Assembly: GCA_039812885.1 (NCBI GenBank)
Contig: JBDIBI010000003.1
Span: 143,237-207,236 of the forward strand
Direction: 5' to 3'
DNA length: 64,000 nt
DNA from: Blastocatellia bacterium
Lineage (GTDB): Bacteria; Acidobacteriota; Blastocatellia; Chloracidobacteriales; JADJPF01
In this document: piece by piece, positions 10,001-42,115 of the stretch
How the letters are laid out: each line of letters begins with the position of its first letter
Numbering within the stretch: position 1 is the first letter of the stretch
The notes under the pieces: model-generated
Seen by the model: only the letters and a program-made list of their open reading frames with translations
Database searches by the model: none
Told to the model about the DNA's origin: nothing
Position numbers and translations under genes: made by a program

Positions 10001-10448
10001 AGAAGACTCATACTTTATATTCTATCGAGGTTTTGGTTTTTATTACCTAAAAGATTTTACTAAAGCTAAACAAGAATTTGATAAAGCTTATAAACTCAAC
10101 CCAGATCAGCTTTTTGCTCAAGTTGGAAAAGCCTTTAGCCTTTCTATTGAAAATAAAGCAAATGAAGGTATTGCTTTGCTAAAAGGTAGTGAAAAGAAAA
10201 TTAGAGAAGGAGGCGTAAGCGATGGAGAAGCTATCTACAAAATAGCTCAAGCTTATGCGGTTTTAGGAGATAAAGCTTCAGCTCTAGAGACTTTGCGATT
10301 GAGCATTGAAAAAGGCTTTTTTTGCTATCCTTATTTTACGAGAGATGAATTGTTAAATAACATTCGCTCAGAAAAAGAGTTTTCTGACATAATGGAAAGT
10401 GCTCATAAACGCCATGAAGATTTTAAGAAAAGATTTTCTAGCTTTTAG
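7020..10448 (+). CDS. Tandem (double) Ser/Thr protein kinase, TM helix, periplasmic domain and TPR repeats
   Basis: Kinase domain 1: GIGGMGRVF, FALKLM, HRDLKPEN, DFSIAK (DFG replaced by DFS), GTVKYMTPEQ. Kinase domain 2: GEGGMGEVY, VALKLL, HRDIKPGN, DFGLAK, GTPKYMSPEQ. A TM segment (ILAIWILVLLVVSLTTGYLVFY) follows, then SLAILPFRN...FLSFSLADAVINKL and multiple TPR-like repeats. Confidence 0.85.
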   Translation: MRLTPSIEAVLGTVIDGKYRLDSLVGIGGMGRVFRATHLQLNKTFALKLMSFPANDSPQLARFKREAEALGKIRHPNVVGVTDFGITSNHTPYIVMEYVEGVSLRTMMERQGRLNERQAVLIARQVCAGLYAAHLQGIVHRDLKPENIMIEDLVDGELLVRVLDFSIAKLLQVDDEDDNISEHEELLGTVKYMTPEQFLGSVVDARSDIFGICLVVYEMLAGIVPPATVSLAQPLREVRTDISPRLSDILQKGLSTLPEKRQQSTLELKREFESLEFTSNVDASTQYSQSLSRHSLNTPGESLVSLELEIGKDISYYRILEKLGEGGMGEVYLAEDTRLGRKVALKLLPTEIIKDPVRIKRFEQEARTASALNHPNIITIYEIGNFERIYFIATEYIEGFTLRQRISEGLSMKEALEIAIQIANALAVAHPAGVVHRDIKPGNIMLRSDGYVKILDFGLAKFTDIDESNQKPKELVGTNTEAGKIIGTPKYMSPEQARGQAVDARTDIFSFGVVLYQMFTSKVPFDGATNSDIIVSVLEHEPVPISYYLLQCPPELERIISKALRKDKDERYQTVKDMLLDLKNLKQKLDFENEFNRSSNSEASSSSGENLYTNKIDITNKIETSDNTEKSLKPQEISTNTNTPRKKTAILAIWILVLLVVSLTTGYLVFYKKGFNSKKARSLAILPFRNMKKDADTDFLSFSLADAVINKLGYVDSLTLRPSSAINKYRNQDDIDSKKVASELHVNTLLLGSFQKEGDDLRITAQLVDVDNDQVIWVDTLNVKYDKLLTVQSKVANQIVKGLEIKLNPNEAEELKRNLTADPLAYEYCLRSVDLLALSANNFPRAQEMLEKAVSIDRNYALAWAYLGLCYSSAATAQYKGSEYYTKAQEAYDKAIDLDKDQIEARLFSATLLTDTGHVEEAVNRLKKIIEKKPRLASAYWELSYAYRYAGMLNESIIVGERAIDLDPSVMNRTFNSYFYNQEYQKFIDSLPALEDSYFIFYRGFGFYYLKDFTKAKQEFDKAYKLNPDQLFAQVGKAFSLSIENKANEGIALLKGSEKKIREGGVSDGEAIYKIAQAYAVLGDKASALETLRLSIEKGFFCYPYFTRDELLNNIRSEKEFSDIMESAHKRHEDFKKRFSSF

Positions 10449-13251: not shown

Positions 13252-13301
13252 AACCTTCTAGTAGGCTTATAGCTTTTAATCTATGAGCTTACTAGAAGGT
13301 T
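13252..13301 (-). terminator. Putative intrinsic terminator after the TonB-dependent receptor gene
   Basis: 15-bp inverted repeat aaccttctagtaggc / gcttactagaaggtt with one mismatch, 24 bp downstream of the minus-strand stop at 13325. On the minus strand it is followed by aaattttta. Confidence 0.45.
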
Positions 13302-13324: not shown

Positions 13325-16267
13325 TTAGAATATAACCTTAAAGCCTAGTTGTAATTGCCTTGGGGAAAAAGCACTACTATAGACCTGTTTAGGTAATTTA
13401 AAGCGTCCATTGTCTTGTTTAATGCCATCGGCTAGAGTTGCTGCTAAAGTAGCACGAGAATAATTAACTCTATTAAAAAGGTTAAATCCTTCAAATATAC
13501 CTTCAATAGAAACTTTTTCTCTAATTTTAATTTTACGTAAAAGTCTTAGATCAACAGTGTAAAAACCATCTAAAATACCTATATTACGAGCTACATTATT
13601 TGGTCGATCCCCTGCAATTAAATCTCCACTAAGATCTTTATCAAATCCTAAACCATAGTAATAGGGTTGCCCACCTTCTAATCGGACAATTGAAGAAAGA
13701 ACAAAATCTTTTAGAAATTGGTTTTTAGTGTAATCAAGAGACCAGACAGCTGAAAGTGAGAAACGATGTCGGATATCTTGTATGGAAAAACCTCTTTCAT
13801 GTCTTAAATCCAATGGGTTTTGAAAGATAGCATTCTCTAATCGGTAATCTGAAAAGTCATCTAATGCTTTTCCAAATGTGTAATTTGTCAATAATTTAAG
13901 ACGTGAGCCTAAACCACGACTTAATTCTAATGTCAAAGCATTATAATAACTATCCCCATTGGATTCTAAATCTAATACACCCCCTCTATTAGTATCTATT
14001 CGTCCTTTGACACGGCTTCCAATAGGATCTCCCACAATAGGTCTTACTATAGGGTTGATATCACGCCTTAATGGTAAACTAATGCCTCTTACATATTGGT
14101 AACTAGCACTAAATGAAGTGTTTTTATCTAACGCAACATCAAAACCAACATGAACTTGTTGAGCATAACCATTACGGAAATCTTTTTGAATATCACTTTC
14201 TCCACTAAGTTGACGTACATAAGTTACACCAGTAGGAAGAGTTGTAGAGGTTGGAAATCTATTTCCAGGTAAACTAAATGGGATAATGGAATAAGGGAAA
14301 AATAGAATTAACTGTTTGAATCCATTAACTTTTTCCAGCCCTGCTTGCATTACTGGTGCTATTGGAGTGATACCATGAAAAATTCCATAAGAAGCATGTA
14401 AATTAAGTCTTTGCCAAGGGTTATAAGCTAAAGATACACGAGGAGAAAAACTTCCTTTATTCTTAGGTAAAAAATCTACTCGCTCTTGATCATAACGTAA
14501 GCCTAACTTAGCTGTTAACTTTGGAGTTAACCTTATATCATCTTGGAAGAATCCAGAAATATATTGATAATTCATTTCAATAGAAGGATCTCCAAAGCCT
14601 TGAATAAATATCGTAGGCAACTCTATTGTTGTTAAATCTGTTAATGGAAACCCAGGAAACCTCCCAGGCAATAATGGTCCAACTATTTTTAAAGCTGCTT
14701 GTTGTTGAGGTGTTCTTAATGCTGGATCAAATGCTTGAATTAAAGTTAATGGTGGCGCGAGAGTGCTTAAGGAAATTGTACTAAATGTAGCTTGACCAAA
14801 GAAACCAGCAGGAAATAAATTCTCTTTTTTAGGTAAATGTACTCTTAAGTAATCTACTCCAAATTTTATTTGATTAATTCCACGTACTAGAGAAGTATTA
14901 TTTACTATTTCAAAAATAAATTCTTTTCTAGGGTTAGGCAAGAATGGATCTTGACCTACAGCTGCACCTGCTTGTAGACGTGGGCCACTTCTAGGATCAA
15001 GTGAATCAGCTTTCAAATCACGGCGAGCAAATAAAAAACGAGTTTCATTAACTAAATTTAAGCTGGGAGCTATGCGAGTATTTGAAACAGAAAGCGTATC
15101 ATCTCTTAGTTGTTGTGTACCGCCTTGAGACTCTGCTCTTCCTCCACCAAATGTAGCTAATGCTCCATTATAAATTCTTCCAAAGTTATAACGAACTGCC
15201 ACTTGATCCTTATCTGAAAGCTTAAAATCATTTCTTAAAAGAAAGGTTGAACTAGCTTCAGAAAAAGGAATATCGCCTACTCTAACAGGAAACCCTCTGC
15301 GATTAAGAGATGCTACCACAACAGCGTTTATATCAACATTTACACTATCTTTAATATTTAGTCTTTCAAAAGAAGCAAAGAAGAAAGCTTTATCTTTTTT
15401 GATTGGCCCACCTAGAGTTAGGCCATATTGATATTGTGAGAAGGATGGTTTATTAGCTCCTGAAAAAGCATTTCGAGCGCTAAGACTATCATTGCGATTA
15501 AGAAAAAATAATGTACCCTCATAAGAATTGCTACCAGTACGAGTTACAATATTTACTAGCCCACCTTGAGCACGACCAAATTCAGCAGAAAATCCATTGC
15601 TAACAACTTGAAATTCCTTTACAGCTTCTTGTGAGTAAGTTGCTCTAACTGAGCCTGCATAATTATCATTGTTGTCTATTCCATCTATTGTAATATTGTT
15701 TTGCCGGGGATTTTGTCCAGAAAAACTTAATCCAGAAGTTGCTTGTGCTCCTTGAAATCGACCACGATCTTGAACTACACCTGATGTAGTAAGAGCAAAA
15801 TCTAAGAAATTTCGTCGGTTTATTGGTAAATTAACAATTTGTGTTGCGTTAATAATAGTGCTTTTTTGGGTTTTAGTTGGTTCTATTATTGTGGATGAAT
15901 CTGCTGTTACTTCGATTACTTCTGAAGGAGTTCCTACTGTAAGAGAGAAGTTTGCTAGTGTAGTAGTTCCAATAGTAAGAGTGATAGGTAATGACTGACT
16001 AGAAAAGCCTTCAGCTTGAGCCATTATTTGATAATTACCCGGAGGTAGTTGAGCAATTATAAAACTACCATCATCTGTAGTTTGTATAGTGCGAAGTAAA
16101 TTGGTCTCTAGTTGTTTAGCTGTAATAGTCGCCCCAACAATTGCTTTACCTTGAGGATCTTTTATTTGCCCAATTACTAAGGCTGTAGTAGAACCTCCTG
16201 ATTGAGCATAAACAGGGGTTAAAGATAAAGTTGCTAAAATGAGCATTGAGCTTAGCCAACGCCACAT
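13325..16267 (-). CDS. TonB-dependent outer-membrane receptor with N-terminal carboxypeptidase-regulatory-like domain (Oar-like)
   Basis: Signal peptide (MLILATLSLTPVYAQS). CarboxypepD_reg-like segment (GQIKDPQGKAIVGATITAKQLETN...DGSFIIAQLPPGNYQI). Plug-like NITIDGIDNND. Long beta-barrel-type sequence ending in an aromatic residue (LGFKVIF). Confidence 0.8.
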   Translation of the reverse strand: MWRWLSSMLILATLSLTPVYAQSGGSTTALVIGQIKDPQGKAIVGATITAKQLETNLLRTIQTTDDGSFIIAQLPPGNYQIMAQAEGFSSQSLPITLTIGTTTLANFSLTVGTPSEVIEVTADSSTIIEPTKTQKSTIINATQIVNLPINRRNFLDFALTTSGVVQDRGRFQGAQATSGLSFSGQNPRQNNITIDGIDNNDNYAGSVRATYSQEAVKEFQVVSNGFSAEFGRAQGGLVNIVTRTGSNSYEGTLFFLNRNDSLSARNAFSGANKPSFSQYQYGLTLGGPIKKDKAFFFASFERLNIKDSVNVDINAVVVASLNRRGFPVRVGDIPFSEASSTFLLRNDFKLSDKDQVAVRYNFGRIYNGALATFGGGRAESQGGTQQLRDDTLSVSNTRIAPSLNLVNETRFLFARRDLKADSLDPRSGPRLQAGAAVGQDPFLPNPRKEFIFEIVNNTSLVRGINQIKFGVDYLRVHLPKKENLFPAGFFGQATFSTISLSTLAPPLTLIQAFDPALRTPQQQAALKIVGPLLPGRFPGFPLTDLTTIELPTIFIQGFGDPSIEMNYQYISGFFQDDIRLTPKLTAKLGLRYDQERVDFLPKNKGSFSPRVSLAYNPWQRLNLHASYGIFHGITPIAPVMQAGLEKVNGFKQLILFFPYSIIPFSLPGNRFPTSTTLPTGVTYVRQLSGESDIQKDFRNGYAQQVHVGFDVALDKNTSFSASYQYVRGISLPLRRDINPIVRPIVGDPIGSRVKGRIDTNRGGVLDLESNGDSYYNALTLELSRGLGSRLKLLTNYTFGKALDDFSDYRLENAIFQNPLDLRHERGFSIQDIRHRFSLSAVWSLDYTKNQFLKDFVLSSIVRLEGGQPYYYGLGFDKDLSGDLIAGDRPNNVARNIGILDGFYTVDLRLLRKIKIREKVSIEGIFEGFNLFNRVNYSRATLAATLADGIKQDNGRFKLPKQVYSSAFSPRQLQLGFKVIF

Positions 16268-20017: not shown

Positions 20018-20043
20018 TAAACAAATATTAGCTTGCAAGTAAT

Positions 20044-20080
20044 ATATTAACCTGGGGTTTAAGCGAAGCTATACCCCAGG
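20044..20080 (+). repeat. Solo right-type hairpin of the dispersed repeat family
   Basis: atattaa then cctggggt-(14 nt)-accccagg. This is the same motif as at 26510-26554 and 42057-42102. It ends 26 nt before the pgi ATG. Confidence 0.7.
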
Positions 20081-20106
20081 AGTTAAAAAGGAGAAAACTA
20101 TTAATT

Positions 20107-22512: not shown

Positions 22513-24150
22513 ATGAAACAATGTCCTAAGTGTAATGCCCAATATAGTGATGACCAAGCGGTTTGTCCTATAGATGCAACTGTTTTAGTAGACACAAAAG
22601 GCAATCAAGTTAATGTTGATCCAATGCTTGGTCGTGTAATTGCTGATAAGTATCGTATAGAAAAACTAATTGGACGTGGTGGAATGGGTGCAGTGTATGA
22701 AGGGCAACATATGCTGCTAGATAGACGTGTTGCTATCAAGGTATTACAACAAAATATGGCTAATGATGAACAAGCTGCTACTAGATTTATTCGTGAAGCA
22801 AAAGCTTGTGCTAGGATAGAACACCCTAATGCTGTAACTATATATGATTTTGGCGTACTTCAAGAAGGAAGTGCTTATTTGGTGATGGAGTTTATTAAAG
22901 GTTATTCTCTACGCCAGCTTATGATGCAACAAAAACCTTTAACCCCAGAGCAAATTGCTGAGTGGATGATACAAGTTTGTAATGTAGTTGAGGCTGCACA
23001 CCAACAAGGTATTATTCATAGAGATCTTAAACCAGAAAATGTAATGCTAAAAGAAACTCCAGATGGATCTGTAATTGTTAAAGTTGTAGATTTTGGACTA
23101 GCAAAAATTACCTCTGAATCTGGATCTGAAAAGGCTAGCACAAATTTGACTAAGCCAGGAGAAATGTTAGGCACTCCGCATTATATGGCGCCGGAATATT
23201 ATGAAGGCGAAACAATAGATAACCGTGCTGATATTTATGCTATAGGTATTATGATGTATGAGTTGTTTTGTGGAGATACCCCTTTTACTGGCACAGTTCA
23301 AAGTATAATTGGAGGACATCTTTTTAAAGATCCACAACCAATTATTAACTTCAACCCTTCTATCCATCCAGCTCTAGATCAAGTTGTTCAGAAAGCATTA
23401 AAGAAAAAACGTGAAGAAAGAATAGCTTCAGCTTCAGAACTAACCCAAGAACTTAAAAAAGCATTAAAAGTTGCTAGGGAGTTTTTCTTCCAAAAAACAG
23501 ATGTACAAACACCATTAGAGGCAGAGGAATTTAAAGCAGGTTCTCTTGATTCTGAGCAACAAACCTCTGAACTAAAGAAAGATACTTTATTCCAAGCTGA
23601 CTCTCCACAAATCTTAAAAACTGAAAAAGTAATTCCTGCTTCACATAAAGAAACTACAAAAATTCAAGAGATCCCTTCTCAAAATAAGCTTACTCAACAA
23701 ATGAATCTAGAAGCTTTAGAATCTCTTGGTATAGGGCTAGAAGCCAAAACACCAGAAGCTAATAAAGCTGTACCTGCAACCCAAAAAGTAGTTATAGATG
23801 ATGTTATATCTGATAAACCAACAGAGTCCTCTTTTACTTCTGCTTCTACTTTGCCTCAACCTCCTGTAGTTGCCGGAGTTGGTATCGCAATTAGCACTCC
23901 CAATAAAGTAATTAATCCAGTTCCTAATACTCAACCAATTACTCCACCTAGTGTTGCTCCTAACCAACTTCAAGTCCAAATACAATCAACAACTAATGCT
24001 CCTCAAACAGGTGAACTTAAACAAGAATATGAAACTTTGTCAGATGTTCTTTCTGCCTTAAAAGGTCAATTAATAATAGGCTCAATTATTGTGGTTCTTT
24101 TAGCAATTATGGTAAGTTTACTTGTTATATATCGTCTAGAAGTTCACTAA
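22513..24150 (+). CDS. Ser/Thr protein kinase with N-terminal zinc ribbon and C-terminal TM anchor
   Basis: CPKCNAQYSDDQAVCPID zinc ribbon. Kinase motifs GRGGMGAVY, VAIKVL, HRDLKPEN, DFGLAK, GTPHYMAPE. Low-complexity Pro/Thr linker, then TM helix LIIGSIIVVLLAIMVSLLVIY. Confidence 0.85.
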   Translation: MKQCPKCNAQYSDDQAVCPIDATVLVDTKGNQVNVDPMLGRVIADKYRIEKLIGRGGMGAVYEGQHMLLDRRVAIKVLQQNMANDEQAATRFIREAKACARIEHPNAVTIYDFGVLQEGSAYLVMEFIKGYSLRQLMMQQKPLTPEQIAEWMIQVCNVVEAAHQQGIIHRDLKPENVMLKETPDGSVIVKVVDFGLAKITSESGSEKASTNLTKPGEMLGTPHYMAPEYYEGETIDNRADIYAIGIMMYELFCGDTPFTGTVQSIIGGHLFKDPQPIINFNPSIHPALDQVVQKALKKKREERIASASELTQELKKALKVAREFFFQKTDVQTPLEAEEFKAGSLDSEQQTSELKKDTLFQADSPQILKTEKVIPASHKETTKIQEIPSQNKLTQQMNLEALESLGIGLEAKTPEANKAVPATQKVVIDDVISDKPTESSFTSASTLPQPPVVAGVGIAISTPNKVINPVPNTQPITPPSVAPNQLQVQIQSTTNAPQTGELKQEYETLSDVLSALKGQLIIGSIIVVLLAIMVSLLVIYRLEVH

Positions 24151-24279
24151 CTCCTTACTGAATATTGCTTTAACTATAATACTTTTCAATATTTTACTAG
24201 CTAGCTTTCTTCAGGAGAAATACTTTCCTACAAACAACTCTTATTTCAACTCTAACTTAAATTTTTTCTAAATTTTTTC

Positions 24280-24308
24280 TTGATTTTTCTAAATTCGTTT
24301 TATATAAT
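24280..24308 (+). promoter_or_regulatory. Sigma70-like promoter of the E1/E2/JAB cluster
   Basis: TTGATT (24280-24285), 17-nt spacer, TATAAT (24303-24308). It lies 57 bp upstream of the ATG at 24365. Confidence 0.6.
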
Positions 24309-24340
24309 TTAGATAGTGTAAAACATACACTATCTAAATT
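24306..24340. promoter_or_regulatory. Perfect 15-bp inverted repeat (candidate operator) overlapping the -10 box and predicted TSS
   Basis: aatttagatagtgta-aaaca-tacactatctaaatt. The arms at 24306-24320 and 24326-24340 are exact reverse complements. Confidence 0.55.
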
Positions 24341-24364
24341 TATAAGATAGAGATATAAAAAAGT

Positions 24365-25006
24365 ATGTTAAAGAGAAAGCAAAACACCAAAGTTTTTTTA
24401 GCTAGAACTGTTGAAAATCAAGCAGATATAGCCACAGAAACAGCACAAATAATACAAAAGGTAAAAGCTCAAAACCATTATGGTTTATGTCCAATTTGTA
24501 TAGAGGATCTTATTTTTGTAAACAGGCTTCATGTTTGTACAAAATGCCACAAGCAATATGTTAGGCGTAGTCGAGATGGTGAGTTGATAGATTGTGTTTT
24601 GCTTCCTTATGGATACTGTCGTTGCTGCGATCAAGCGTTTCCTTTGATAAAGATTATAAATACAGAAGATTTGCTTTGTCCAATTAGTAAAGAAAGATAC
24701 TTTTTCTACTTAAATAAACACTTGAGGGTTAGTGAATTACCTTTTGGAATATGCTCTTGTTGCCAAATAGCTAGCCCATTGATGAACAAAGCAGATGGTT
24801 CAATTTACTGTAATATAAGTAAAGAAAATTATATACGTAATAATAATGGTACTATTACGCGTAAACCTGTAGAAGTCAATTTACCATCAAGTACAGAAAT
24901 AGAGGCAGCTCTTAATGAAGGCACAGCAGCCTTTTATTATGGTGGTTTTATAGGAACTCAAGAACCTGAGCCACCTAATGAAATACCAAAGCGCCGTCGT
25001 CGATAG
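24365..25006 (+). CDS. Cys-rich protein with three degenerate zinc-ribbon modules and a YYGG-plus-tail C-terminus
   Basis: 213 aa. Modules: YGLCPIC..(x12)..CTKC, YGYCRCC...PL..(x)..CPISKERY, FGICSCC...PL..(x)..CNISKENY. C-terminus is ...EGTAAFYYGG (GG codons at 24941-24946) followed by the 19-aa tail FIGTQEPEPPNEIPKRRRR. It is the first gene of the cluster. Confidence 0.6.
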   Translation: MLKRKQNTKVFLARTVENQADIATETAQIIQKVKAQNHYGLCPICIEDLIFVNRLHVCTKCHKQYVRRSRDGELIDCVLLPYGYCRCCDQAFPLIKIINTEDLLCPISKERYFFYLNKHLRVSELPFGICSCCQIASPLMNKADGSIYCNISKENYIRNNNGTITRKPVEVNLPSSTEIEAALNEGTAAFYYGGFIGTQEPEPPNEIPKRRRR

Positions 25007-25044
25007 AGCTTTAAGATTAATTCAGAGATATAGGAGAAAAGATT

Positions 25045-25278
25045 ATGAACAACCGTCAAAATACACCAACAATTGCACCTACTTGTAGTTGCTGTTTACC
25101 AACCCAAAAACTTGTTGTAACTGACCAAAGAACTTATTGTCCATTAACTCAAAGACTTTATGATAACAATGGCAATCAACTTCCAGCAGTAATTGACTTT
25201 TATCCAGCACAACGTCCAAAGGGTGAAAAAGCTCCTTTTGCCATTAATCCAGCAGAAGAACGCTTTGGTTTAAAGTAA
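25045..25278 (+). CDS. Small single-module Cys-rich paralogue of the 213-aa protein, at the position where Bil-type operons carry the Ubl
   Basis: 77 aa with a good RBS (aggag). It has one module, TCSCCLPTQKLVVTDQRTYCPLTQRLY, matching the repeat of the upstream protein. C-terminus is ...NPAEERFGLK (Gly75 followed by 2 residues). It lies directly upstream of the E2-like gene. Confidence 0.55.
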   Translation: MNNRQNTPTIAPTCSCCLPTQKLVVTDQRTYCPLTQRLYDNNGNQLPAVIDFYPAQRPKGEKAPFAINPAEERFGLK

Positions 25279-25312
25279 CTTAAACAAGCAAACCTCCATA
25301 AGGAAGTGACTT

Positions 25313-26008
25313 ATGCAACAGAAACGTATTTTGCCTAACAATAAGTTAAAAACTTGGGAAGTGGATGTGGAAGTTCTAAAGTCCAAATTTAAAAGCCATG
25401 CTTGGCTAAAAAATGAAAAGTTTTTAAAACGCGATATAGAGGAAATGAGCCAATATTTGCCTCATTGGATTATTACAGTAGGAAATGGAATAAATTTGCT
25501 ACATTCTAAATGTTGTTCTGATAACTTGGCACCTATAGAAGGTGAGCTACGTTGTATTTTATGTAATCGTCCAAGTTCAGAAACTCCAAATACATTAACT
25601 TGGACAGGACTTCTACCAGTGGGTTTAGAAGGTTATGAAAAAGCTTTTAAAAAGTTAGAAAAAGCTAGAGCAGAAGGAAAGCTAAAATATCCAATTATTA
25701 TACCTAACAATAAGCGTCATTTACTTGTTCCAATGATGGTTGTATATCCTAGCAACTGGCCTTATTCGCCTCCTCAGGTTCATTATGTAGATAACCAATA
25801 CATAGATGCTCTAAAACTCCCTTCTAATCATCAAACTCATCTAGGTGGTAGAACAATTTGTCTTTATCATGCAGCACAATGGAATGATAACACCTCAATT
25901 ATGCAAGTAATCGCAAATCGTGTTGCACCTCATTTGTTAGCGCTCTTGAAGCTATCAAATGATCAAGAAAACTTTGAATTTTTTAATACTTCTTATGGTT
26001 ATTATTGA
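25313..26008 (+). CDS. UBC-fold E2-like ubiquitin-conjugating enzyme homologue with an inserted Cys4 knuckle
   Basis: 231 aa. MMVVYPSNWPYSPPQVHYVD...HQTHLGGRTICLYHAAQWNDNTSIMQVI parallels the eukaryotic E2 core (YPxxPPxxxF...HPNI...GxICLDIL...W). The candidate catalytic residue is Cys183 (codon 25859-25861). The insert HSKCCSDNLAPIEGELRCILC carries four Cys. Confidence 0.7.
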   Translation: MQQKRILPNNKLKTWEVDVEVLKSKFKSHAWLKNEKFLKRDIEEMSQYLPHWIITVGNGINLLHSKCCSDNLAPIEGELRCILCNRPSSETPNTLTWTGLLPVGLEGYEKAFKKLEKARAEGKLKYPIIIPNNKRHLLVPMMVVYPSNWPYSPPQVHYVDNQYIDALKLPSNHQTHLGGRTICLYHAAQWNDNTSIMQVIANRVAPHLLALLKLSNDQENFEFFNTSYGYY

Positions 26009-26031
26009 GTTCAGGTTGCGCCTCTTAAACC

Positions 26032-26091
26032 CCAAGATACGTTTCTTGATTCCAAGATACGCTTCTTGATTCCAAGATACGCTTCTTGAAC
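26032..26091 (+). repeat. Three tandem 20-bp units
   Basis: ccaagatacg(t/c)ttcttga(tt/ac) x3. Each unit can form a small caaga/tcttg hairpin. The units lead straight into the larger repeat array. Confidence 0.8.
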
Positions 26092-26360
26092 CCCAGGTTA
26101 CGCTTCGCTAAAACCTGGGGCTAATATGGGTTTGGCGATTTGAATTTTGAGCTATTTTAATAAATGCACTCATTTTTTTGAACCCCAGGTTGCGCTCCTT
26201 TCACTCGCTAAAACCTGGGGCTAATATGGGTTTGGCAATTTGAATTTTGAGCTATTTTAATAAATGCACTCATTTTTTTGAACCCCAGGTTGCGCTCGTT
26301 TCACTCGCTAAAACCTGGGGCTAATATGGGTTTGGCGATTTGAATTTTGAGCTATTTTAA
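26088..26360 (+). repeat. Three direct tandem copies (92, 100 and about 81 bp) of the left-type hairpin unit
   Basis: Each unit reads gaa-CCCCAGGTT-loop-AACCTGGGG-ctaatatgggtttggc(g/a)atttgaattttgagctattttaataaatgcactcattttttt. Copies 2 and 3 differ at only 2 positions over their shared length. A degenerate fourth copy lies at about 26385-26460. Confidence 0.85.
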
Positions 26361-26509
26361 AATATTAGTTTGGAGTTGTGCTTTTTTGAATCCTAGGTTA
26401 TGGGGTTAATGTAGGTTGAGCAATTATGAAATTAGGTAGTTTCAATAATTAAACCTACTTAAAAAATATATAAACCCGAGATTTAGTCAGACTCAAAATT
26501 AGGGAAAAT

Positions 26510-26554
26510 ATATTAGCCTGGGGTTTTAACGAGTGAAACGAGTGCAACCCCAGG
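26510..26554 (+). repeat. Right-type terminal hairpin closing the repeat array
   Basis: atattag-CCTGGGGTT-ttaacgagtgaaacgagtgc-AACCCCAGG. The loop is the reverse complement of the left-type loops. It ends 2 nt before the ATG at 26557 and 14 nt before the ATG at 26569. Confidence 0.8.
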
Positions 26555-26568
26555 TTATGAGGGGGTAT

Positions 26569-27492
26569 ATGAAAAGACCAATAGTAAAAATTAGTTGGCA
26601 AGCATGGAAAGAAATCTCACAAGAAGTAAACAAATGGGCTAAACAGGGCAAAGAGCCTTTGGAATGCGTATTTTACCCACTTACGGAAGTTATATTTGCT
26701 AAAAATAAAGCTCTTACGCCTTTTGATACAATTGACTTAAAGGACGTAGAAGAATTTATTATAAGATCTGTCTTTATTCCTCCTGATAAATACACCAATT
26801 ACTCTAGTTATGCTGCAAGTTTTATTGCTCCAAGTGAAGATTCAACAAAAATGCAGACAGTTTTTGCTGAAGGTATTGATGCAAAACTCAGATCTTTTCC
26901 ACAACTTTACTTCCTAGGGCCAGGACATTCACATCCTTTTTCTGTTGATTCCACTTCTCCATCTTTAACGGATATTAATTATCATATGCGCCCTTACCGC
27001 TTGAAAAATGAGAACCTTCTTGGCTTTCGATTCTCATTAGCATTAATTGTAGTACAAACATCTGATAATGTGTTAGAAGAATTAAAATTTGAGTTTTCTT
27101 TTGAACAACTTGAGTATTTAAAATGGCAAGCTTGTTCATTTGTTTTGGATGAAAATCAGAAGCTACAAGATCTTGGAATAGCAAAAGTAATTTCTAACAA
27201 AAAGTTGTTAACAAAACCTTTTTATTATTCTACAAAAGGAAATGCTTGGGAAAACCAACAGAAATTATCTCTTGGAAATAGATTAATTGAACATCAACGT
27301 TGGCCTGGAGCTTGGACATCTTTTTTGATTAAGCAAAGCCTAGAATTAGCTATGTTAGTAATGTTACCTCCACGATTTCCCATTCAACCAGCTATTAAAC
27401 AGAGTCTCTCACTTACAACTAAACAAGCTAGCAGTGCAGAGTTTTGGAATTGTGGACGCTCTTACAAAGATTATTCTTTAGGAGAAATCTAA
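26569..27492 (+). CDS. JAB/JAMM (MPN+) family metallopeptidase, putative deconjugating or processing isopeptidase
   Basis: Upstream Glu (PLECVFYPL) plus GPGHSHPFSVDSTSPSLTD, which reads H-x-H-x9-S-x2-D (JAMM-like; canonical spacing is x7). The ORF track starts at GTG 26533, inside the repeat hairpin loop. I prefer ATG 26569 (gagg at 26559-26562 as RBS) or ATG 26557. Confidence 0.7.
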   Translation: MKRPIVKISWQAWKEISQEVNKWAKQGKEPLECVFYPLTEVIFAKNKALTPFDTIDLKDVEEFIIRSVFIPPDKYTNYSSYAASFIAPSEDSTKMQTVFAEGIDAKLRSFPQLYFLGPGHSHPFSVDSTSPSLTDINYHMRPYRLKNENLLGFRFSLALIVVQTSDNVLEELKFEFSFEQLEYLKWQACSFVLDENQKLQDLGIAKVISNKKLLTKPFYYSTKGNAWENQQKLSLGNRLIEHQRWPGAWTSFLIKQSLELAMLVMLPPRFPIQPAIKQSLSLTTKQASSAEFWNCGRSYKDYSLGEI

Positions 27493-27493
27493 T

Positions 27494-29080
27494 ATGTTGA
27501 CTACTAGGGCAGATAATAATACAACTCAAGATATAGAGCTTTTTGCTCGAATTAAGCCAATTGTTGGGGATACACTTTTTAATCGTAAAGTAGTTATTTT
27601 AGGCAATGAACAAATGGTTTTGCTAATAGAATATTTAGTTTGTTGTGGAGTTGTAAATTTTGAACTTCTAGAGCTAGATGAACAAGTTAACGAAAATGCC
27701 AAGCCTTTAGTAAAAGCGTTAGAAGAGGTTTCTAAGAGATTACAATTAAAAATCAATTTTCAAACTTGGAGCAAAGAAAATCTTGAAAAATTAAGCACTC
27801 AAAACATAGACTTAATTGTTGGAAGTGGCGACTACAACGCTTTTCAACAAACAAAAACACTTGTCTATAAAAGTGGAAAAGCAGGCATTTTTTATTTGTT
27901 AACTCCTAGTAGCAGTGGGTTAATTATATTTTTACAGCCAAATAATCTAGTGGAATTACCTGTAAATCTTTTTTCTAATAATTCTATATATCAATTTACT
28001 TATTTACACTTAACTAATGTAGTAGCAAATTATGCTAAAGGCCTATTATTAAAAGGAACAAAGTTTGCTAGATTGGATATAGAATCGATTGTAAACAATC
28101 ATCAAATGTTGTTGGTAGGTCATCCTACTTGGCCTTGGGCAATTAAAGCAATTACAGCTTTTGAATTTCCTTATTTGCTTACTAATGTAATTACTCAAAA
28201 TGAGTCAACCCCAAAGTTAACAGGTAAAAAATATCTGGTGGTTGGCTTAGGTAGTTTAGGAAGTGTTATATCAGATAGTCTATTTGATTTAGGGGCAGAT
28301 CTAGTATTAGTTGATGGGGAAAAAGTTGAAAAAGCTAATCCAATTCGTCAGCTTTATAGTGTTGACCAAGTAGGGTTGCCTAAAGCAATTGCTTTATCTA
28401 AACGGCTTAGCAACAAAAGTTTCTACAAAGAGCAAAAAGTTGTAAGTTGTGAGTTAGTAATTACTCCAGATAATATTGAGGAATTTGAGAAATTAATAGA
28501 AATTCACAAGCCTGATGTAGCTGTAGTAGCTACAGGAACAGGCAATGATAGAATTATTTCTCAAAGCTTACTTTCAAAACAAATTCCACATGTTGTAGTG
28601 AGTTGTTATGCTAGAGCTAGGTTTTTTGAAGCAATTGTTGTAGATGCTAAAGGTAGTCCATGTTTTGGTTGTATGAGGGGACATCTTTACTTAGGTAAGA
28701 TGCCAAGTTTAACTCCTGAGCAAAAGGCTAGATATGTAAGTTCTGAGAGTGATCTAATGGCTGAACCTGCTACTAGAATTGAAACAAGTCGTGCTGCTGA
28801 TTTAGCTACACATATAGCTTATGGATTAAGTAATTTAGAATATGCACCTTGGCTAGATCGAGCATTAAAAGAAGAAAAAACATTTTTTCTTGGTGGAAAC
28901 GTAGCAGAGTATCAAGATGGAGAATGGGCATATACGATCAATCAGCCAAGTGAAGTAAAATTATTTGGATTAAGTGATATTACTGGACGAGGAAATTACA
29001 TAGAATGTTGGGATTGTGGGAGAAAACTTCATGTAGAAGTTCAGCAAAAAAATCTAGGAGTCATAGAAAAGATAGAATAA
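27494..29080 (+). CDS. E1-like ThiF/MoeB-family adenylating enzyme with an N-terminal degenerate (inactive-type) Rossmann domain
   Basis: C-terminal half: KYLVVGLGSLGSVISDSLFDLGADLVLVDGEKVEKANPIRQLY (GxGxxG, acidic residue, Arg finger), GLPKA, ATGTGNDR, and two CxxC pairs (CFGC at 390-393, CWDC at 505-508) as in MoeB/ThiF. N-terminal half: RKVVILGNEQMVLLIEYLVCCGVVNFELL resembles the same fold but lacks the glycine motif. The start overlaps the JAB stop (taatatg). Confidence 0.75.
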   Translation: MLTTRADNNTTQDIELFARIKPIVGDTLFNRKVVILGNEQMVLLIEYLVCCGVVNFELLELDEQVNENAKPLVKALEEVSKRLQLKINFQTWSKENLEKLSTQNIDLIVGSGDYNAFQQTKTLVYKSGKAGIFYLLTPSSSGLIIFLQPNNLVELPVNLFSNNSIYQFTYLHLTNVVANYAKGLLLKGTKFARLDIESIVNNHQMLLVGHPTWPWAIKAITAFEFPYLLTNVITQNESTPKLTGKKYLVVGLGSLGSVISDSLFDLGADLVLVDGEKVEKANPIRQLYSVDQVGLPKAIALSKRLSNKSFYKEQKVVSCELVITPDNIEEFEKLIEIHKPDVAVVATGTGNDRIISQSLLSKQIPHVVVSCYARARFFEAIVVDAKGSPCFGCMRGHLYLGKMPSLTPEQKARYVSSESDLMAEPATRIETSRAADLATHIAYGLSNLEYAPWLDRALKEEKTFFLGGNVAEYQDGEWAYTINQPSEVKLFGLSDITGRGNYIECWDCGRKLHVEVQQKNLGVIEKIE

Positions 29081-29242
29081 AATTGAAAAATTAAGGGGAA
29101 ATAACTTTCTTATTTGCTTGACTTTGAGTGTTGTCTGAAATAATGTTTAACACATTAATTTGTTTTAATATAGCTAGTTTAGGTTATTAAAACCTAACTT
29201 AAACATTATTTGTTTGCTGGCATCAATAGTTAGGAGTTTGTT

Positions 29243-30262
29243 GTGACTAACTCTCAACAAGTAAATAAGCTATCAGAATCACATTTTGCTAGTAAAATAA
29301 ATAACTTGTTATGGCTTTTTGTCAAAGTCATATCTGTAATCTTAGTTTTATCAATATTGTTGGTTACCATAACAGTAGCCTTTACTTGGGCACCGGATCA
29401 GCCAGTATCCGTTTTACAAACTCGCTGGGCTCCGCCTCCATCCGCTTTTCTAGATGTTGCAGGAATGAAAGTTCATATTAGAGATGAAGGCCCTAAAGAT
29501 GATCCAACCCCTTTGATCATGATTCATGGAACTTCTTCTAGCTTGCATACTTGGGAAGGTTGGACACAAGAACTTAAAAAACAAAAAAGGGTTATTTCCT
29601 TTGATTTACCAGGTTTTGGCCTTACAGGCCCTTCTCCAGATAATGACTACACCATAAAAAACTATGTACGGTTTGTAAAATCAATACTTGATAAACTGAA
29701 TGTGCAGCATTGCACCTTGGTTGGTAATTCTTTTGGAGGCTTAATTTCTTGTGCAACAGCACTAGCAATGCCTGAACGTATCCAGAAACTTATTTTAGTG
29801 GATTCTGCTGGTTGTCCAGATGCTGAATCAAGCTCAGTTCCTATTGCTTTTTGGGTTGCAGGCACGCCTTTAGTAAACCAACTAGCGGAAATTACTTTAC
29901 CACGTAGTTTTATAGAATCTAGTGTAAAAGATGTTTATGGAAATCCTGACAAAGTAACTCCAGAAATAGTAGATCGTTACTTTGACTTGGCTTTGCGTGA
30001 AGGTAATAGACATGCACTTGTACAAATGATTGAACAATCAATATCAGATGTTTTGATTGATCAAATGCATAAGCTAAAACAACCAACCCTTATTTTATGG
30101 GGAGGAAAAGATAGCTTAATTCCTCCTGATCAAGCCGAACAATTTCATCATGAAATAGCTGGTAGTCAAGTTGTAATGTTTGAGGATCTTGGACATGTTC
30201 CACAGGAAGAAGATCCTATTCGCACTGTAATTAGTGTAAAACGGTTTCTTGGATTAAGATAA
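29243..30262 (+). CDS. Alpha/beta-fold hydrolase, membrane anchored
   Basis: N-terminal TM (LLWLFVKVISVILVLSILLVTITVAF), HG oxyanion motif (IMIHGTSSS), nucleophile elbow VGNSFGG and a C-terminal GHVPQEE His motif. Confidence 0.75.
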   Translation: MTNSQQVNKLSESHFASKINNLLWLFVKVISVILVLSILLVTITVAFTWAPDQPVSVLQTRWAPPPSAFLDVAGMKVHIRDEGPKDDPTPLIMIHGTSSSLHTWEGWTQELKKQKRVISFDLPGFGLTGPSPDNDYTIKNYVRFVKSILDKLNVQHCTLVGNSFGGLISCATALAMPERIQKLILVDSAGCPDAESSSVPIAFWVAGTPLVNQLAEITLPRSFIESSVKDVYGNPDKVTPEIVDRYFDLALREGNRHALVQMIEQSISDVLIDQMHKLKQPTLILWGGKDSLIPPDQAEQFHHEIAGSQVVMFEDLGHVPQEEDPIRTVISVKRFLGLR

Positions 30263-33759: not shown

Positions 33760-36700
33760 TTATTCGTTAGGTTTTTGAAGTGTAATTTGCTCAGAAGGAA
33801 TGATTTTGTCTGTATCTGGAGAACTTTTTTTAGCGGATATTATTATTGTTGCTTGCTCAGATTTTGAAACATCTTGGTCTTTTTCTCCTTTTAACTCTAT
33901 TTCCTCGGTAGTGTGTAATGATTTATATTCAATCCCTGTTATATTAGCGAATATGCTAGCTATTTCTTCTAAAGAAGGCCGTTCCTCTGGTTTTTTCTTT
34001 AGTGCAGCTAATACAATTGCTTCTATTTCATCAGGAGTTTCAGGAGTAAAATCTTTTATAGGATTAGGTTCTTGAAAAAGATGTGCTGCTGTAATTGCTG
34101 GAAAACTCGACATTTTATCTTGGAAAGGTAATCGACCAGACAGTAGTTCATACAAAATAATACCTAAACTATAAGTATCTGAACTTCCATCATAGGCTTT
34201 AAGTGCAAGCCGTTCAGGTGCCATATAAATAGGTGTTCCAATGATTCCACCTGTTTTAGTTAAATGAAGGTTATTTTGTTCACTCTCACCCATATCTATT
34301 AGTTTAGCAATACCAAAGTCAAGTACCTTAACTACTTCACCTTCAATAGTATAATGTAAGAAAATATTATCAGGTTTAATATCTCTATGTATAATACCAG
34401 ATTTATGAGCTTTAGATAAAACTTTGCAAATGGGTATTGCTATTTCAGCACATCTTTTAACTGATAATTTTCCTTCTTTCCTTAATTCTGATTTAAGAGT
34501 GTGTCCTTGTAATAATTCCATAACTAAGTAAGGAATTCCTTCACTAGAAATACCTGAATCCAGTATTGCAACAGCGTTTGGATGATTAACACGACAAGTT
34601 GAAATAGCTTCACGTTGAAAGCGTTCTAAATTTTCTACTGAGTCATTGCCTGGAGAAGGAGAAAATACTTTTACTGCAACATGGCGTTTTATATTTAGAT
34701 GCATAGCTTTATAAACTGCCCCAAAACCACCACTTCCAATTTTTTCTTCTAATTTATATTTTCCATCTAATACAGTTCCTGGAAGTGCTTCTGAGAGGAC
34801 TGCGAATATACGATTTGCTTTTTGGTTAAGCTGTAAAAGATCTTCATAATTTTCTGCTAACTCGCGGTTTTTACTGTTTAGTTGTTCATTTTTCTGTTTT
34901 AATTCTTCGGTTCTTTCTTGTACTTTTTTCTCTAGTTCTTGGTTACGTATTGTAAGAAGTCCTAAACGGTAATTGTGAAATAGAAAAATGGATGAGCTAA
35001 TAACAAGTAGATAAAGAAAATAAGCTAGATTAGTTTTCCACCAAGGAGGAAAAATTATTATTTTTACTGCAATTCCTTCATTATTCCATAAACCATCATT
35101 GTTTGAAGCAATTACGCGAAATGTATATTCTCCTGGTGATAAGTTAGAATATCTAGCAAATCTTTTAGTGCTATCTGTATCAATCCACGCTTTATCTGTT
35201 CCTTCCATTTTAACACGATATTTGTTTTTTTCTGGGCGTATGAAGTTAAGTGCAGAAAACTCAATCTCAACAAAATTTTTGTTGTATGGAAAATTAAGCT
35301 CAGCATTTGCAGATAAAAAATGTTGGTAGTTATCATAGGTTGTGCTACCGTCATAAACCTTAAAACTTGTTATTACAATATTAGGGGCTCTTTCATTATT
35401 TTTTATTGTACTAGGATAAAACCGATTAAATCCATTTACTCCTCCAAAGAAAAGCTCTCCTTTTGAACTTTTGTAGTAAGAGCCAAAGTTAAACTCATTA
35501 TTTTGTAACCCATCTGTATCAGTATAATGCCAAATATCATTGGTTTTAGGGTCATACTTTATAAGCCCTTTGTTGCTACTCATCCAGAGAAAGCCTTTTT
35601 CATCCTCTAATATTCCATAGATAAAATCATTGAGAAGTGCAATATCAGGGATAGTTGAAAACTCTCCAGAAGTGGAATCCATCTTATTTAATCCATTTTC
35701 AGTGGCTACAAACACGATGCCTGATTTGGTTTTATAAGCACAGGTTATAGCATTAGTATTGATGGTTTTATTATTTTGAGGGTCATGTGTATAGGCAATA
35801 AAAGAGTCTTTTTCTTTATTGTAAAGAAAAAGTCCATTACCTGTAGAAACCCAGATATTTTCTAGATCGTCTTCATAAATTTGTCGAACACGATTGGTAC
35901 TAAGCTTGTTTGGAGATACATCTCTTGAGTAAATATCTAAGGTTTTAGTGTTAAGATCGAACTTATATATTCCTTTGCTGTTAGTTCCAAACCAAAGATT
36001 TTTTTTCTTATCTTCCAAAATAACATTACTATATATTTGTTTTAGGCTATCAGGTAAATCAAGTTTATCTGTTATAAACTGTTCAAGTTCAACACTATAT
36101 ACCTTTAACCCTTTATTAGTCGCTATCCAAATTAATCCTGATGAATCTTTAGCCATTGCTAAGATTAAATCACTAGACAATGCATTTGGATCTTTTGGAT
36201 TAGATTGAAATTTATTAATAAGTTTGTTATCAGAAGAATATCTATATAAACCATTAAGAGTTCCAACCCAAATATAACTCTTAGAGTCTTCACAAAATCC
36301 TGTAACAGAACTCTTTGTTGGCGATAAGGAATCAAGATTAAATTGTGGTCTAATTGGTGAAAATCGGTTGCTTAGTGAATTGAGCTTAATTAGTCCTGTA
36401 TCAGAAGCAGCTAACCACATTTCATTTGCAGAGTCAAAAAATACTTGATTAATAACTGTATTTTTTAGATTTGATGAAAGTTCATACTCAGTAAATTTTT
36501 CAGTATTTGGGTCAAAACTTAATATTTTGTCTATCATTGTTATCCATAAAATTCCTAGATGATCACAAGAAATAGAATTAATAACAGGCTGAAATAAAGA
36601 ATTTCCTATTGGTAAACTAAAACAATTGTAAATATTGTTTGCTTTCTCATCATACCTACATAATTTATCAGAAGTAGCCACCCAAATATTGCCATTTAAA

Positions 36701-37431
36701 TCTTCAACAGTATTAACAATTTTAGATAAGTCATTAGGGGTTTTATTAGAAGGGAAAAATCTTTTAAAAGTTTTGTTCTTTTCATCGAATAAGCTTAATC
36801 CATCAGTGGTTGAAACCCATAATCTAGCTTTGCTGTCAGAGAAAATAGCAGTTATAAAATTACTACTAATGCTAAGAAGGTTATTGGGATCATTGGAGAA
36901 ATTAGAAAGTGTATCTGTCTTTTGATCTAAACAAATTAGTCCCTCATTGGGTGTACCAATCCAAATTCTATCTTTTTGATCTGCATATATGGTGGAAATA
37001 TAATTACTATTTATTTGTTGGTTTTTAGAAAAATCTTTCCCCAAAATAGTTATAGTTTCATCCTTAGTACTATATTTGTTTACTCCTCCTCCATTAGTGC
37101 CAATCCATATGTTTCCATCCTTATCAGCTACAACACAAGTAATATAGTTATTAGAAATTGAATTTGAGTTAGTCGGTTTATTGGTTAGTGTATAAAATGT
37201 ATAACCATCATATCTGTTTAAGCCATATCTAGTAGCAAACCATAAATACCCTTGCTTGTCTTGTGTTATTTGATAAACAGTATTGTTTGATATTTTGTTT
37301 TCTGTATAAACAGGATCAAATTGTAAAAATTTCTTTTGTGCTGACACACTAATGACAAAACCGAATAATAATAAAAAAACAATTATTAAACGAAATAGAT
37401 TAGTCACACAAAACTCCTTGTTTTGGGGCAA
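33760..37431 (-). CDS. Sensor Ser/Thr kinase: periplasmic two-component-regulator-propeller repeats plus Y_Y_Y domain, TM, coiled coil, kinase
   Basis: Repeated ...D..G.lWigT..GL..yd motifs (for example QDKQGYLWFATRYGLNRYD), Y_Y_Y-like YRVKMEGTDKAWID...GEYTFRVIASNNDGLWN, TM LAYFLYLLVISSSIFLF, coiled coil (QELEKKVQERTEELKQKNEQLNSKNRELAE). Kinase motifs GSGGFGAVY, VAVKVF, HRDIKPDN, DFGIAK, GTPIYMAPE. Confidence 0.8.
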   Translation of the reverse strand: MPQNKEFCVTNLFRLIIVFLLLFGFVISVSAQKKFLQFDPVYTENKISNNTVYQITQDKQGYLWFATRYGLNRYDGYTFYTLTNKPTNSNSISNNYITCVVADKDGNIWIGTNGGGVNKYSTKDETITILGKDFSKNQQINSNYISTIYADQKDRIWIGTPNEGLICLDQKTDTLSNFSNDPNNLLSISSNFITAIFSDSKARLWVSTTDGLSLFDEKNKTFKRFFPSNKTPNDLSKIVNTVEDLNGNIWVATSDKLCRYDEKANNIYNCFSLPIGNSLFQPVINSISCDHLGILWITMIDKILSFDPNTEKFTEYELSSNLKNTVINQVFFDSANEMWLAASDTGLIKLNSLSNRFSPIRPQFNLDSLSPTKSSVTGFCEDSKSYIWVGTLNGLYRYSSDNKLINKFQSNPKDPNALSSDLILAMAKDSSGLIWIATNKGLKVYSVELEQFITDKLDLPDSLKQIYSNVILEDKKKNLWFGTNSKGIYKFDLNTKTLDIYSRDVSPNKLSTNRVRQIYEDDLENIWVSTGNGLFLYNKEKDSFIAYTHDPQNNKTINTNAITCAYKTKSGIVFVATENGLNKMDSTSGEFSTIPDIALLNDFIYGILEDEKGFLWMSSNKGLIKYDPKTNDIWHYTDTDGLQNNEFNFGSYYKSSKGELFFGGVNGFNRFYPSTIKNNERAPNIVITSFKVYDGSTTYDNYQHFLSANAELNFPYNKNFVEIEFSALNFIRPEKNKYRVKMEGTDKAWIDTDSTKRFARYSNLSPGEYTFRVIASNNDGLWNNEGIAVKIIIFPPWWKTNLAYFLYLLVISSSIFLFHNYRLGLLTIRNQELEKKVQERTEELKQKNEQLNSKNRELAENYEDLLQLNQKANRIFAVLSEALPGTVLDGKYKLEEKIGSGGFGAVYKAMHLNIKRHVAVKVFSPSPGNDSVENLERFQREAISTCRVNHPNAVAILDSGISSEGIPYLVMELLQGHTLKSELRKEGKLSVKRCAEIAIPICKVLSKAHKSGIIHRDIKPDNIFLHYTIEGEVVKVLDFGIAKLIDMGESEQNNLHLTKTGGIIGTPIYMAPERLALKAYDGSSDTYSLGIILYELLSGRLPFQDKMSSFPAITAAHLFQEPNPIKDFTPETPDEIEAIVLAALKKKPEERPSLEEIASIFANITGIEYKSLHTTEEIELKGEKDQDVSKSEQATIIISAKKSSPDTDKIIPSEQITLQKPNE

Positions 37432-41863: not shown

Positions 41864-41915
41864 ATCTATAGTTTTAGCGAGCTATATAACTAATTTGACT
41901 AGTGTTATGCTCATA

Positions 41916-42102
41916 AACCCCAGGTAACGCTCGTTATTACTCGCTAGAACCTGGGCTAATATGGGTTGAGCAAATTGAAAAATGAGCTATTTCAATAATT
42001 AAATCTCTTGCAAACGGAATTCTATGAAAATGGATCTTATTGCGTAATCGAGCCATATATTAGCCTGGGGTTTTAGCGAGCGTTAGCGAGCGCAACCCCA
42101 GG
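41916..42102 (+). mobile_element. Complete 187-bp copy of the dispersed repeat (MITE/REP-like): left-type hairpin, AT-rich core, right-type hairpin
   Basis: Left: ccccaggt-loop-acctggg-ctaatat (41918-41962). Core shares gagctatttcaataattaaa with the 26.4-kb array. Right: atattag-CCTGGGGTT-loop-AACCCCAGG (42057-42102). It has no coding capacity and ends 13 nt before the ATG at 42116. Confidence 0.55.
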
Positions 42103-42115
42103 AAATGGAGGAACA

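Follow-up and report, generated by a model that had tools for sequence, protein, structure and literature searches.

A hairpin repeat cluster, probably of REP/REPIN-like origin, between the E2 and JAB genes of a ubiquitin-like conjugation operon in a Blastocatellia bacterium

In a Blastocatellia bacterium, the E2-like and JAB-like genes of a cluster for ubiquitin-like protein conjugation are separated by 560 bp of ordered, hairpin-forming repeats. This spacer is most probably a cluster of a lineage-specific, non-coding and non-autonomous palindromic repeat of the REP/REPIN-like (MITE-like) kind, inserted at the junction and then amplified locally. It was analyzed within a 64,000-nucleotide stretch of one contig (the window), whose host has a G+C content of ~33%, unusually low for Acidobacteriota. 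The housekeeping neighbors (aceE, pgi, and aceK), together with the homologues that match them best, group this organism with uncultured Acidobacteriota. Hairpin-forming selfish repeats are a common kind of junk-like DNA in bacteria, and their clusters are well described in Pseudomonas and enterobacteria; to our knowledge, REP/REPIN-like repeats have hardly been described in Acidobacteriota. The initial annotation of this DNA reported a structured array that divides an operon and extends over the start of a gene, and missed that the array is one locus of a dispersed family of hairpin elements. What it described now appears to have a mundane basis, namely that a mobile hairpin repeat was amplified in place, and the origin of the array is largely explained. 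Its anatomy, its membership of a dispersed family, its secondary insertion, the polymorphism of a 20-bp unit and the compensatory conservation of the stems are all established. A REP/REPIN-like family is in this way documented in an uncultured low-GC lineage of Acidobacteriota, the start of the JAB gene is corrected to 26569, and the loss of conserved C-terminal residues from the E2 protein is ascribed to the insertion.

Anatomy of the array and its hairpins

The spacer extends from the E2 stop (26008) to the JAB ATG (26569) and is filled, on the plus strand, by three 20-bp units, three units of 92–100 bp, one decayed unit and one oppositely built hairpin; all the repeat parts listed in the initial annotation were recovered at the coordinates given there. 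At the 5′ edge, positions 26009–26031 hold a decayed left-arm remnant (repeat family D2, 87%), and because its sequence, GTTCAGGTTGCGCCTCTT, resembles CCCCAGGTTGCGCTCCTT, the spacer is considered element-derived from the first base after the E2 stop. Three 20-bp units (CCAAGATACGCTTCTTGATT) follow at 26032–26091 (26032–26089 in Tandem Repeats Finder, with a period of 20, 2.9 copies and 97% matches), each being a decayed copy of the 5′ flank, the 5′ arm and half of the loop of the left hairpin. The larger units, for which Tandem Repeats Finder gives a period of 100 with 2.6 copies and 98% matches over 26105–26360, in agreement with the separate repeat search, each open with the hairpin CCCCAGGTT...AACCTGGGG.

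Unit 1 (92 bp, 26089–26180) contains a left-type hairpin with a short loop (CCCCAGGTT-12 nt-AACCTGGGG, 26091–26120; −16.3 kcal/mol, z −3.8), a CTAATAT tag and an AT-rich left core. Unit 2 (100 bp, 26181–26280) has a left-type hairpin with a long loop, the tag and the left core, and its tail differs from that of unit 1 by one mismatch. Unit 3 (26281–26388) repeats unit 2 with exactly two mismatches (26198 C/G and 26237 A/G) across the first 80 nt, the number already counted in the initial annotation, and diverges beyond. The 9-mer CCCCAGGTT occurs eight times in the window against 0.19 expected, and seven of the eight occurrences lie within 26091–26556.

The remainder of the array, from 26389 onward, is built differently. 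A decayed left end with a deleted loop (AATCCTAGGTTATGGGGTTAATGT), followed by a left core and a variable center, occupies 26389–26507, as seen by alignment with the element at 41910–42110 described below. The degenerate copy proposed earlier is thus real, with ~26389–26460 matching the internal part of that element at 41953–42006 (blastn, 80% over 55 nt). The inverted right-type hairpin, also noticed earlier, occupies 26508–26556 and consists of an ATATTAG tag and then CCTGGGG-24 nt-CCCCAGG (−21.5 kcal/mol, z −5.0); it forms the 3′ half of a 47-nt inverted repeat with 83% identity (I2, 26281–26327 and 26510–26556), and its loop and tag are inverted relative to the left ends, but three of its stem base pairs are exchanged. 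The decayed stretch and the right hairpin together (26389–26556) are best read as the original complete element, partly decayed. Because the degenerate copy fits the core of the element at 41916 better than it fits the amplified units, the array can be described as one complete element preceded by three left-half copies and three 20-bp copies. The array contains no ORF of at least 50 aa, and small ORFs were rejected on that ground. A CRISPR array was likewise rejected, as the "spacers" between the hairpins are themselves 98–99% identical rather than unique.

The hairpins are individually stable (−16 to −24 kcal/mol, z −3.1 to −5.4 against shuffled sequences, the range of folds widening to −13 to −24 kcal/mol in the comparison with REPs), and the whole 571-nt stretch folds with a z of −8.9 against shuffles. 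Four left ends and the reverse complements of three right ends were aligned. In this alignment, 96.8% of the cells of the 9-bp stem are paired across the seven copies versus 86.4 ± 2.7 in shuffles, and the pairing drops sharply when the 3′ partner is slid by 1–3 columns. Loops and tags match between the left and right ends, but the three central adjacent stem pairs are swapped (C-G to U-A, C-G to G-C, and A-U to G-C) in all three right-type copies; these changes probably reflect one ancient difference between the ends and not three separate events. Since the three pairs differ between them, the two ends are unable to form a perfect long palindrome. The loops are 16–25 nt long with internal duplications of 9–10 nt, and the tag next to the stem reads TTAG in six copies and TTAA in the solo copy described below.

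No Rfam family reached its gathering score anywhere in the window, and nothing meaningful was found at E ≤ 1 in 25900–26700; the best match, a plant MIR precursor with 27 bits against a gathering score of 230, is explained by the presence of a long inverted repeat and by nothing more. A role of the CCWGG sites in the stems in restriction or Dcm methylation was also considered and dropped, given that such sites are not avoided in the window (63 versus 47 expected) and come to about the expected total when the elements, which hold 14 of them, are left aside.

A dispersed family and its insertion into the operon

Sensitive self-comparison of the window revealed the same element at two further loci. 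A single complete element of 187 bp lies on the plus strand at 41916–42102. Its parts are, in order, a left hairpin (CCCCAGG...CCTGGG) with the CTAATAT tag, a core that is AT-rich and conserved, a center that varies, and the ATATTAG tag with a right hairpin (CCTGGGG...CCCCAGG). The whole element folds into a long rod (−73.8 kcal/mol, z −5.1), and 13 nt separate its end from the ATG (42116) of a gene for an M16 peptidase. A solo right-type hairpin (20040–20082, plus strand) sits in the aceE–pgi spacer, 24 nt from the ATG of pgi, and three further samples of this organism contain it as well. A profile of the ends, run with nhmmer, matches all seven copies (E 1e-11 to 5e-20), and the three family loci in 64 kb are all intergenic. 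Because the same element recurs at 41916–42102 and 20040–20082, the array is regarded as a cluster of a REP/MITE-type mobile repeat and not as a structure specific to its locus.

Assembly behavior points in the same direction. All seven short-read contigs with the exact E2 end 64–363 bp into the array, and both of those with the exact JAB begin inside the right hairpin. Breaks of this kind are the behavior expected of a multi-copy repeat and therefore support a dispersed family; short-read assemblies of this organism are expected to break at the elements, as all nine examined short contigs that encode the exact E2 or JAB protein do. The tandem structure, the near-identical units and a slippage-type polymorphism would also suit a minisatellite of purely local origin, formed de novo at the junction and unconnected with any mobile element. 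That origin is extremely improbable, as it is contradicted by the dispersed copies, which share hairpins, tag and core with the array and in which assemblies break.

Only three loci of the mobile repeat have been seen directly, which counts against the mobile-element reading, as do two further results. No transposase of any kind is found among the 39 ORFs of at least 120 aa in the window, and no target-site duplication was identified: no clear direct repeat flanks 41916–42102 or 20040–20082, and in relatives, the empty sites have diverged too far for an alignment. A scan of 185,579 species genomes with ATATTAGCCYSRGGTTTTA returned 13 singleton matches, consistent with chance, and one look-alike cluster, the source genome not being in that collection; a metagenome collection and viral contigs, scanned with a longer family signature, gave no match, and the source genome is evidently not in the scanned collections. 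The look-alike is a dense cluster of ATATTAG-CCCRGGG-TTTTAA-YCCTGGG-ATAAT hairpins on a Verrucomicrobiota contig (MAG179; L013, positions 1–700). These hairpins have the tag and the loop start of the window's right-type hairpin, and may be convergent or belong to a wider tag family.

Other repeats were noted around these loci. In a genus-level relative (L028, 12631–12704), the aceE–pgi spacer, which in the window contains the solo CCTGGGG hairpin, holds a different hairpin (ATTGCTCTTTAAC...GTTAAAGAGCAAT) and after it a short tandem of CAATCTAAAGAG; this spacer is occupied by different repeat families in related genomes. In the window itself, a 50-nt palindrome (84%) unrelated to the CCCCAGG family lies at 13252–13301 between two minus-strand genes, just 3′ of a TonB-dependent receptor gene (13325–16267).

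The array splits a cluster in which a Ser/Thr kinase gene (22513–24150) is followed by genes for a 213-aa protein, a 77-aa protein, an E2-like protein, a JAB-like protein, a ThiF-type E1 (Pfam, 2.2e-16) and an alpha/beta hydrolase; it is the presence of E2-like, JAB-like and ThiF-type E1 genes that identifies the system as one of ubiquitin-like protein conjugation. The E2-like gene 5′ of the array (25313–26008, plus strand) is assigned by PADLOC with an E of 3.7e-4, and the JAB/JAMM-like gene 3′ of it (26569–27492, plus strand) weakly so (E 6.4e-3), with an H-x-H...S-x-x-D motif in the alignment. PDB sequence searches with the E2 and JAB proteins gave no match, and the search with the E1 protein gave similarity only at the ThiF/Cap2 level. 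Neither the exact E1 protein of the window nor the representative of its 100%-identity cluster had an entry on record. A promoter-like TTGATT-17-TATAAT sequence (24280–24308, 10/12) is located upstream of the first cluster gene, and directly after it, 26 nt before that gene, lies a perfect palindrome, TTTAGATAGTGT-N7-ACACTATCTAAA. As this promoter-like site and the palindrome precede the first cluster gene, the array is placed inside the operon. Palindromes of the ATAGTGT-N7-ACACTAT type also occur 5′ of the cluster in the genus-level relative (L028, 17173–17228), and the palindrome in the window (24280–24339 with the promoter-like site) looks like a conserved operator for the operon. The kinase gene directly 5′ of the cluster is one of five Ser/Thr protein kinase genes in the 64 kb (7020–10448, 22513–24150, 33760–37431, 57745–59451, and 62659–63879); its PADLOC assignment as PD-T4-6-type (E 1e-91) may merely reflect the kinase domain.

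That the array is a secondary insertion within the operon, as the initial annotation had suspected from the tightness of the other junctions, which measure 38, 34, and 1 bp, was established by comparison with seven orthologous Ubl–E2–JAB–E1 clusters from metagenomes and MAGs, with E1 proteins 47–70% identical. The E2–JAB gap is only 18, 32, 27, 36, 27, 37, and 13 bp in these clusters versus 560 bp here; the array is thus absent from the junction in all seven, and it is on this ground that it is considered a secondary insertion. The nhmmer end profile found no significant match in the related Acidobacteriota loci scanned; the cluster with the 13-bp gap (L037) was not among them, and its gap is too short to hold an element.

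The orthologous clusters differ in other respects as well. In an Acidobacteria MAG (GCA_016213785.1; L031, 3800–4302), a TAG-rich tandem array of 8.7 × 59 bp (93% matches) lies between the Ubl and E2 genes, and no other sizeable tandem array is present in that 13.6-kb locus; the array was rejected as the same kind of element, being unrelated in sequence and not above shuffles in structure (z +2.3). In five clusters (L028, L031, L034, L035, and an ENA contig), HSP70-like and isochorismatase-like genes lie between the kinase gene and the Ubl/E2/JAB/E1 genes, and in four of the five a GerE-type regulator follows E1, L028 ending before that point. The window (22513–30262) and its closest relative (L001) are without the HSP70-like and isochorismatase-like genes, and have a gene for a 213–217-aa protein instead and an alpha/beta hydrolase gene after E1.

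The E2 product ends in ...SYGYY and is without the last 2–3 residues, a conserved ...(Y)D-R common to all five orthologues in an alignment of six E2 proteins, and the TGA stop of the gene directly adjoins element-derived sequence (25990–26011). We infer that the insertion cut off the last 2–3 codons of E2 and supplied a stop. On the other side, the longest JAB ORF starts at GTG 26533, inside the last hairpin, and the array had accordingly been thought to overlap the JAB start. As the JAB protein of the closest orthologue (L001, 72% identical) aligns only from ATG 26569, GTG 26533 is not taken as the JAB start and is probably an annotation artefact. The ATG is preceded by a ribosome-binding site, GAGGGGG (26559–26571 with the ATG, plus strand), and lies 12 nt after the hairpin; the array does not overlap the coding sequence but adjoins it.

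The recent amplification proposed in the initial annotation is borne out by the near identity of the units (1–2 differences) and by variation between samples. Every sample with this exact E2, six or more in all, carries the array, and the number of 20-bp units is three in the window and in three Logan assemblies versus five, including one undecayed CCCAGGTTACGCTTCTTGAAC unit, in two independent JGI assemblies (contig tails L018 and L022, compared with L017, L019, and L021). As the unit number differs between samples, the array is still changing. The initial annotation had also proposed looking for copy-number variation of the 100-bp unit, and the natural polymorphism of the 20-bp unit answers this in part.

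These observations can be combined into a probable course of events. The basic element is ~187 bp long, with two 47-nt terminal inverted repeats that each form their own 9-bp GC-rich hairpin, an unpaired ATATTAG/CTAATAT tag on the inner side of each end and an AT-rich core of ~100 bp between them. Its mobilization would take place in trans, through a transposase whose gene lies elsewhere; the enzyme could be of the RAYT-like HUH type, which works on single-stranded hairpins, or one that binds the terminal inverted repeats. One element most probably entered the space that separates the E2 stop from the ribosome-binding site of JAB, removing the last 2–3 codons of E2. The left half (hairpin and core, 100 bp) was afterwards duplicated in tandem, and a 20-bp piece from the left arm followed, the likely route being slippage or unequal recombination between direct AACCCCAGGTT hairpin repeats.

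Expected consequences for expression

A scan of 26009–26568 found no terminator-like site (a GC hairpin with a T-run), and because of this, we infer that the array is co-transcribed with the operon. An intrinsic terminator or a known RNA family as an explanation of the array was rejected on the same scan and on the lack of Rfam matches at the gathering score. The minimal consequence of the insertion would be that the tight E2–JAB coupling of all relatives is lost and that four stable stem-loops are present in the predicted mRNA. The hairpins, if they act at all, would do so mainly as passive RNA stem-loops that break the translational coupling between E2 and JAB and may buffer mRNA decay, and not as a selected regulator.

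An internal promoter, which the initial annotation had also proposed, gains no support. The consensus scan found no promoter-like site on the plus strand of the array; two weak sites (9/12, TTCAAA-17-TAAAAT) lie on the minus strand at 26182–26154 and 26282–26254, once per 100-bp unit. These sites and the AT-rich spacers are what could be cited for units that carry promoters, whether internal ones for JAB–E1 or antisense ones reading back into E2. This reading is very unlikely: the matches reach only 9/12, the region holds fewer promoter-like sites than shuffled sequence does (16 versus 21.2 ± 4.8), and a much better promoter, with its operator-like palindrome, precedes the first cluster gene at 24280–24339.

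A second alternative is that the array is kept as useful. The hairpins in the mRNA would then hinder decay or offer RNases a processing site, and would also decouple translation, such that Ubl/E2 and JAB/E1 levels differ and the unit number tunes their relation, by analogy with the REP/BIME elements in the malE–malF spacer of E. coli. Read-through of the array is plausible, because it holds no terminator-like site; its stable hairpins are conserved through compensatory changes; and it is present in every sample with the exact E2 while its unit number is polymorphic. All three right-type hairpins, moreover, lie 12–24 nt upstream of a same-strand start codon, just 5′ of the ribosome-binding site. 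This position would fit a 5′ stabilizer that acts once the transcript has been processed, but three cases are no proof. Since the intergenic spaces here are mostly short and co-directional, a positional preference cannot be read from three loci. The unrelated 8.7 × 59-bp array at another junction of an orthologous operon might be taken as a parallel, but a weak one, since that array is no more structured than shuffles (z +2.3). Six of the seven orthologous clusters work without any array, and the decayed units (26009–26091 and 26389–26410) look like neutral erosion. On balance, retention for a useful function is unlikely, and a mobile repeat amplified in place remains the preferred reading. 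If it were true that the array shifts the balance between E2 and JAB–E1 expression, the locus would be a natural test case for stoichiometry in bacterial systems of ubiquitin-like conjugation.

Comparison with known repeat systems

The tag is TTAG/TTAA, with T and not G in its first position, and the hairpins are therefore placed outside the described GTAG and CGTC super-families of REPs. The family appears to be new: its tag is TTAG in place of GTAG, Rfam gave no match, and neither did the public scans. A bolder, joint proposal would treat the hairpins as the mark of a REPIN-type super-family, "ATATTAG-tagged" and so far undescribed, that has a transposase of its own and an obligatory stem swap (CCCCAGG/CCTGGGG) serving in recognition or protection, possibly across phyla (Verrucomicrobiota, L013), and/or would make the array a selected insulator that sets the Ubl/E2 : JAB/E1 ratio; we consider it decidedly unlikely.

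Several known systems resemble the ATATTAG-tagged elements in part. Like MITEs, the complete element is small (187 bp), has terminal inverted repeats (47 nt) and contains no ORF of at least 50 aa. The Correia/NEMIS elements of Neisseria and other MITEs are non-coding elements of 100–190 bp with terminal inverted repeats that lie near gene starts, are co-transcribed and fold as long hairpins. By this general description, the present element is alike in being short and non-coding, in its terminal inverted repeats, in its closeness to a gene start and in its long-hairpin fold. Correia elements, however, carry 26-bp repeats that form no hairpins of their own, and they are further marked by a TA duplication and by defined modules for IHF and for promoters; none of these features was identified here.

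The BIME-2 arrays of E. coli are tandemly amplified mosaics of REP hairpins and fixed linker motifs in the intergenic spaces of operons; their copy number varies between strains, they have a known effect on segmental mRNA stability, and their REPs alternate in orientation (Y and Z types). The E2–JAB array resembles them in the tandem amplification of hairpins with linkers in an operon spacer and in its variable copy number, but has no sequence similarity to them and differs in that its amplified hairpins are all direct, the last alone being inverted.

REP elements have a GC-rich stem of 6–13 bp and an unpaired terminal tag, GTAG (with G-Y/T-R/M-G variants) or CGTC; they are dispersed at high copy number in intergenic space between co-directional genes and form HH or TT dimers with 20–100-bp spacers (Di Nocera et al. 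2013, PMC3733652). In the same account, REP clusters arise from units reiterated in tandem together with flanking DNA, and "heterodimers" with different stems are known, for which protection from the cleavage of long hairpins has been proposed (PMC3733652). The elements described here differ from REPs in the TTAG/TTAA tag and in loops of 16–25 nt, longer than those of most REPs, both of which weigh against the class assignment, as well as in the 9–10-nt duplications within the loops and in their low-GC uncultured Acidobacteriota host. They resemble REPs in the 9-bp GC-rich stem with an unpaired tag at one end; in their location between co-directional genes; in the tags-inside (TT) dimer with a spacer, as at 41916–42102; in "heterodimers" with different partner stems; in clusters formed by tandem reiteration that includes flanking DNA, here a hairpin and core; and in an element terminus able to supply a stop codon.

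REPINs are defined in part by a cognate RAYT (Y1 HUH transposase) gene in the genome, flanked by REPs; in Pseudomonas fluorescens, evenly spaced REP arrays are known alongside tandem REPIN clusters that exceed 700 bp (Bertels and Rainey 2011, PMC3116915). Unlike REPINs, the present elements have no RAYT gene in the 64-kb window and a spacer of ~100 bp, longer than typical, and the amplified unit is the left half of the doublet only and not the whole doublet. The likeness lies in the overall design: two inverted hairpin-forming REPs and a spacer can fold into one long hairpin (47-nt arms at 83% and −73.8 kcal/mol here), and near-identical units stand in tandem arrays, including evenly spaced arrays of a single type, as they do over more than 700 bp in P. 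fluorescens.
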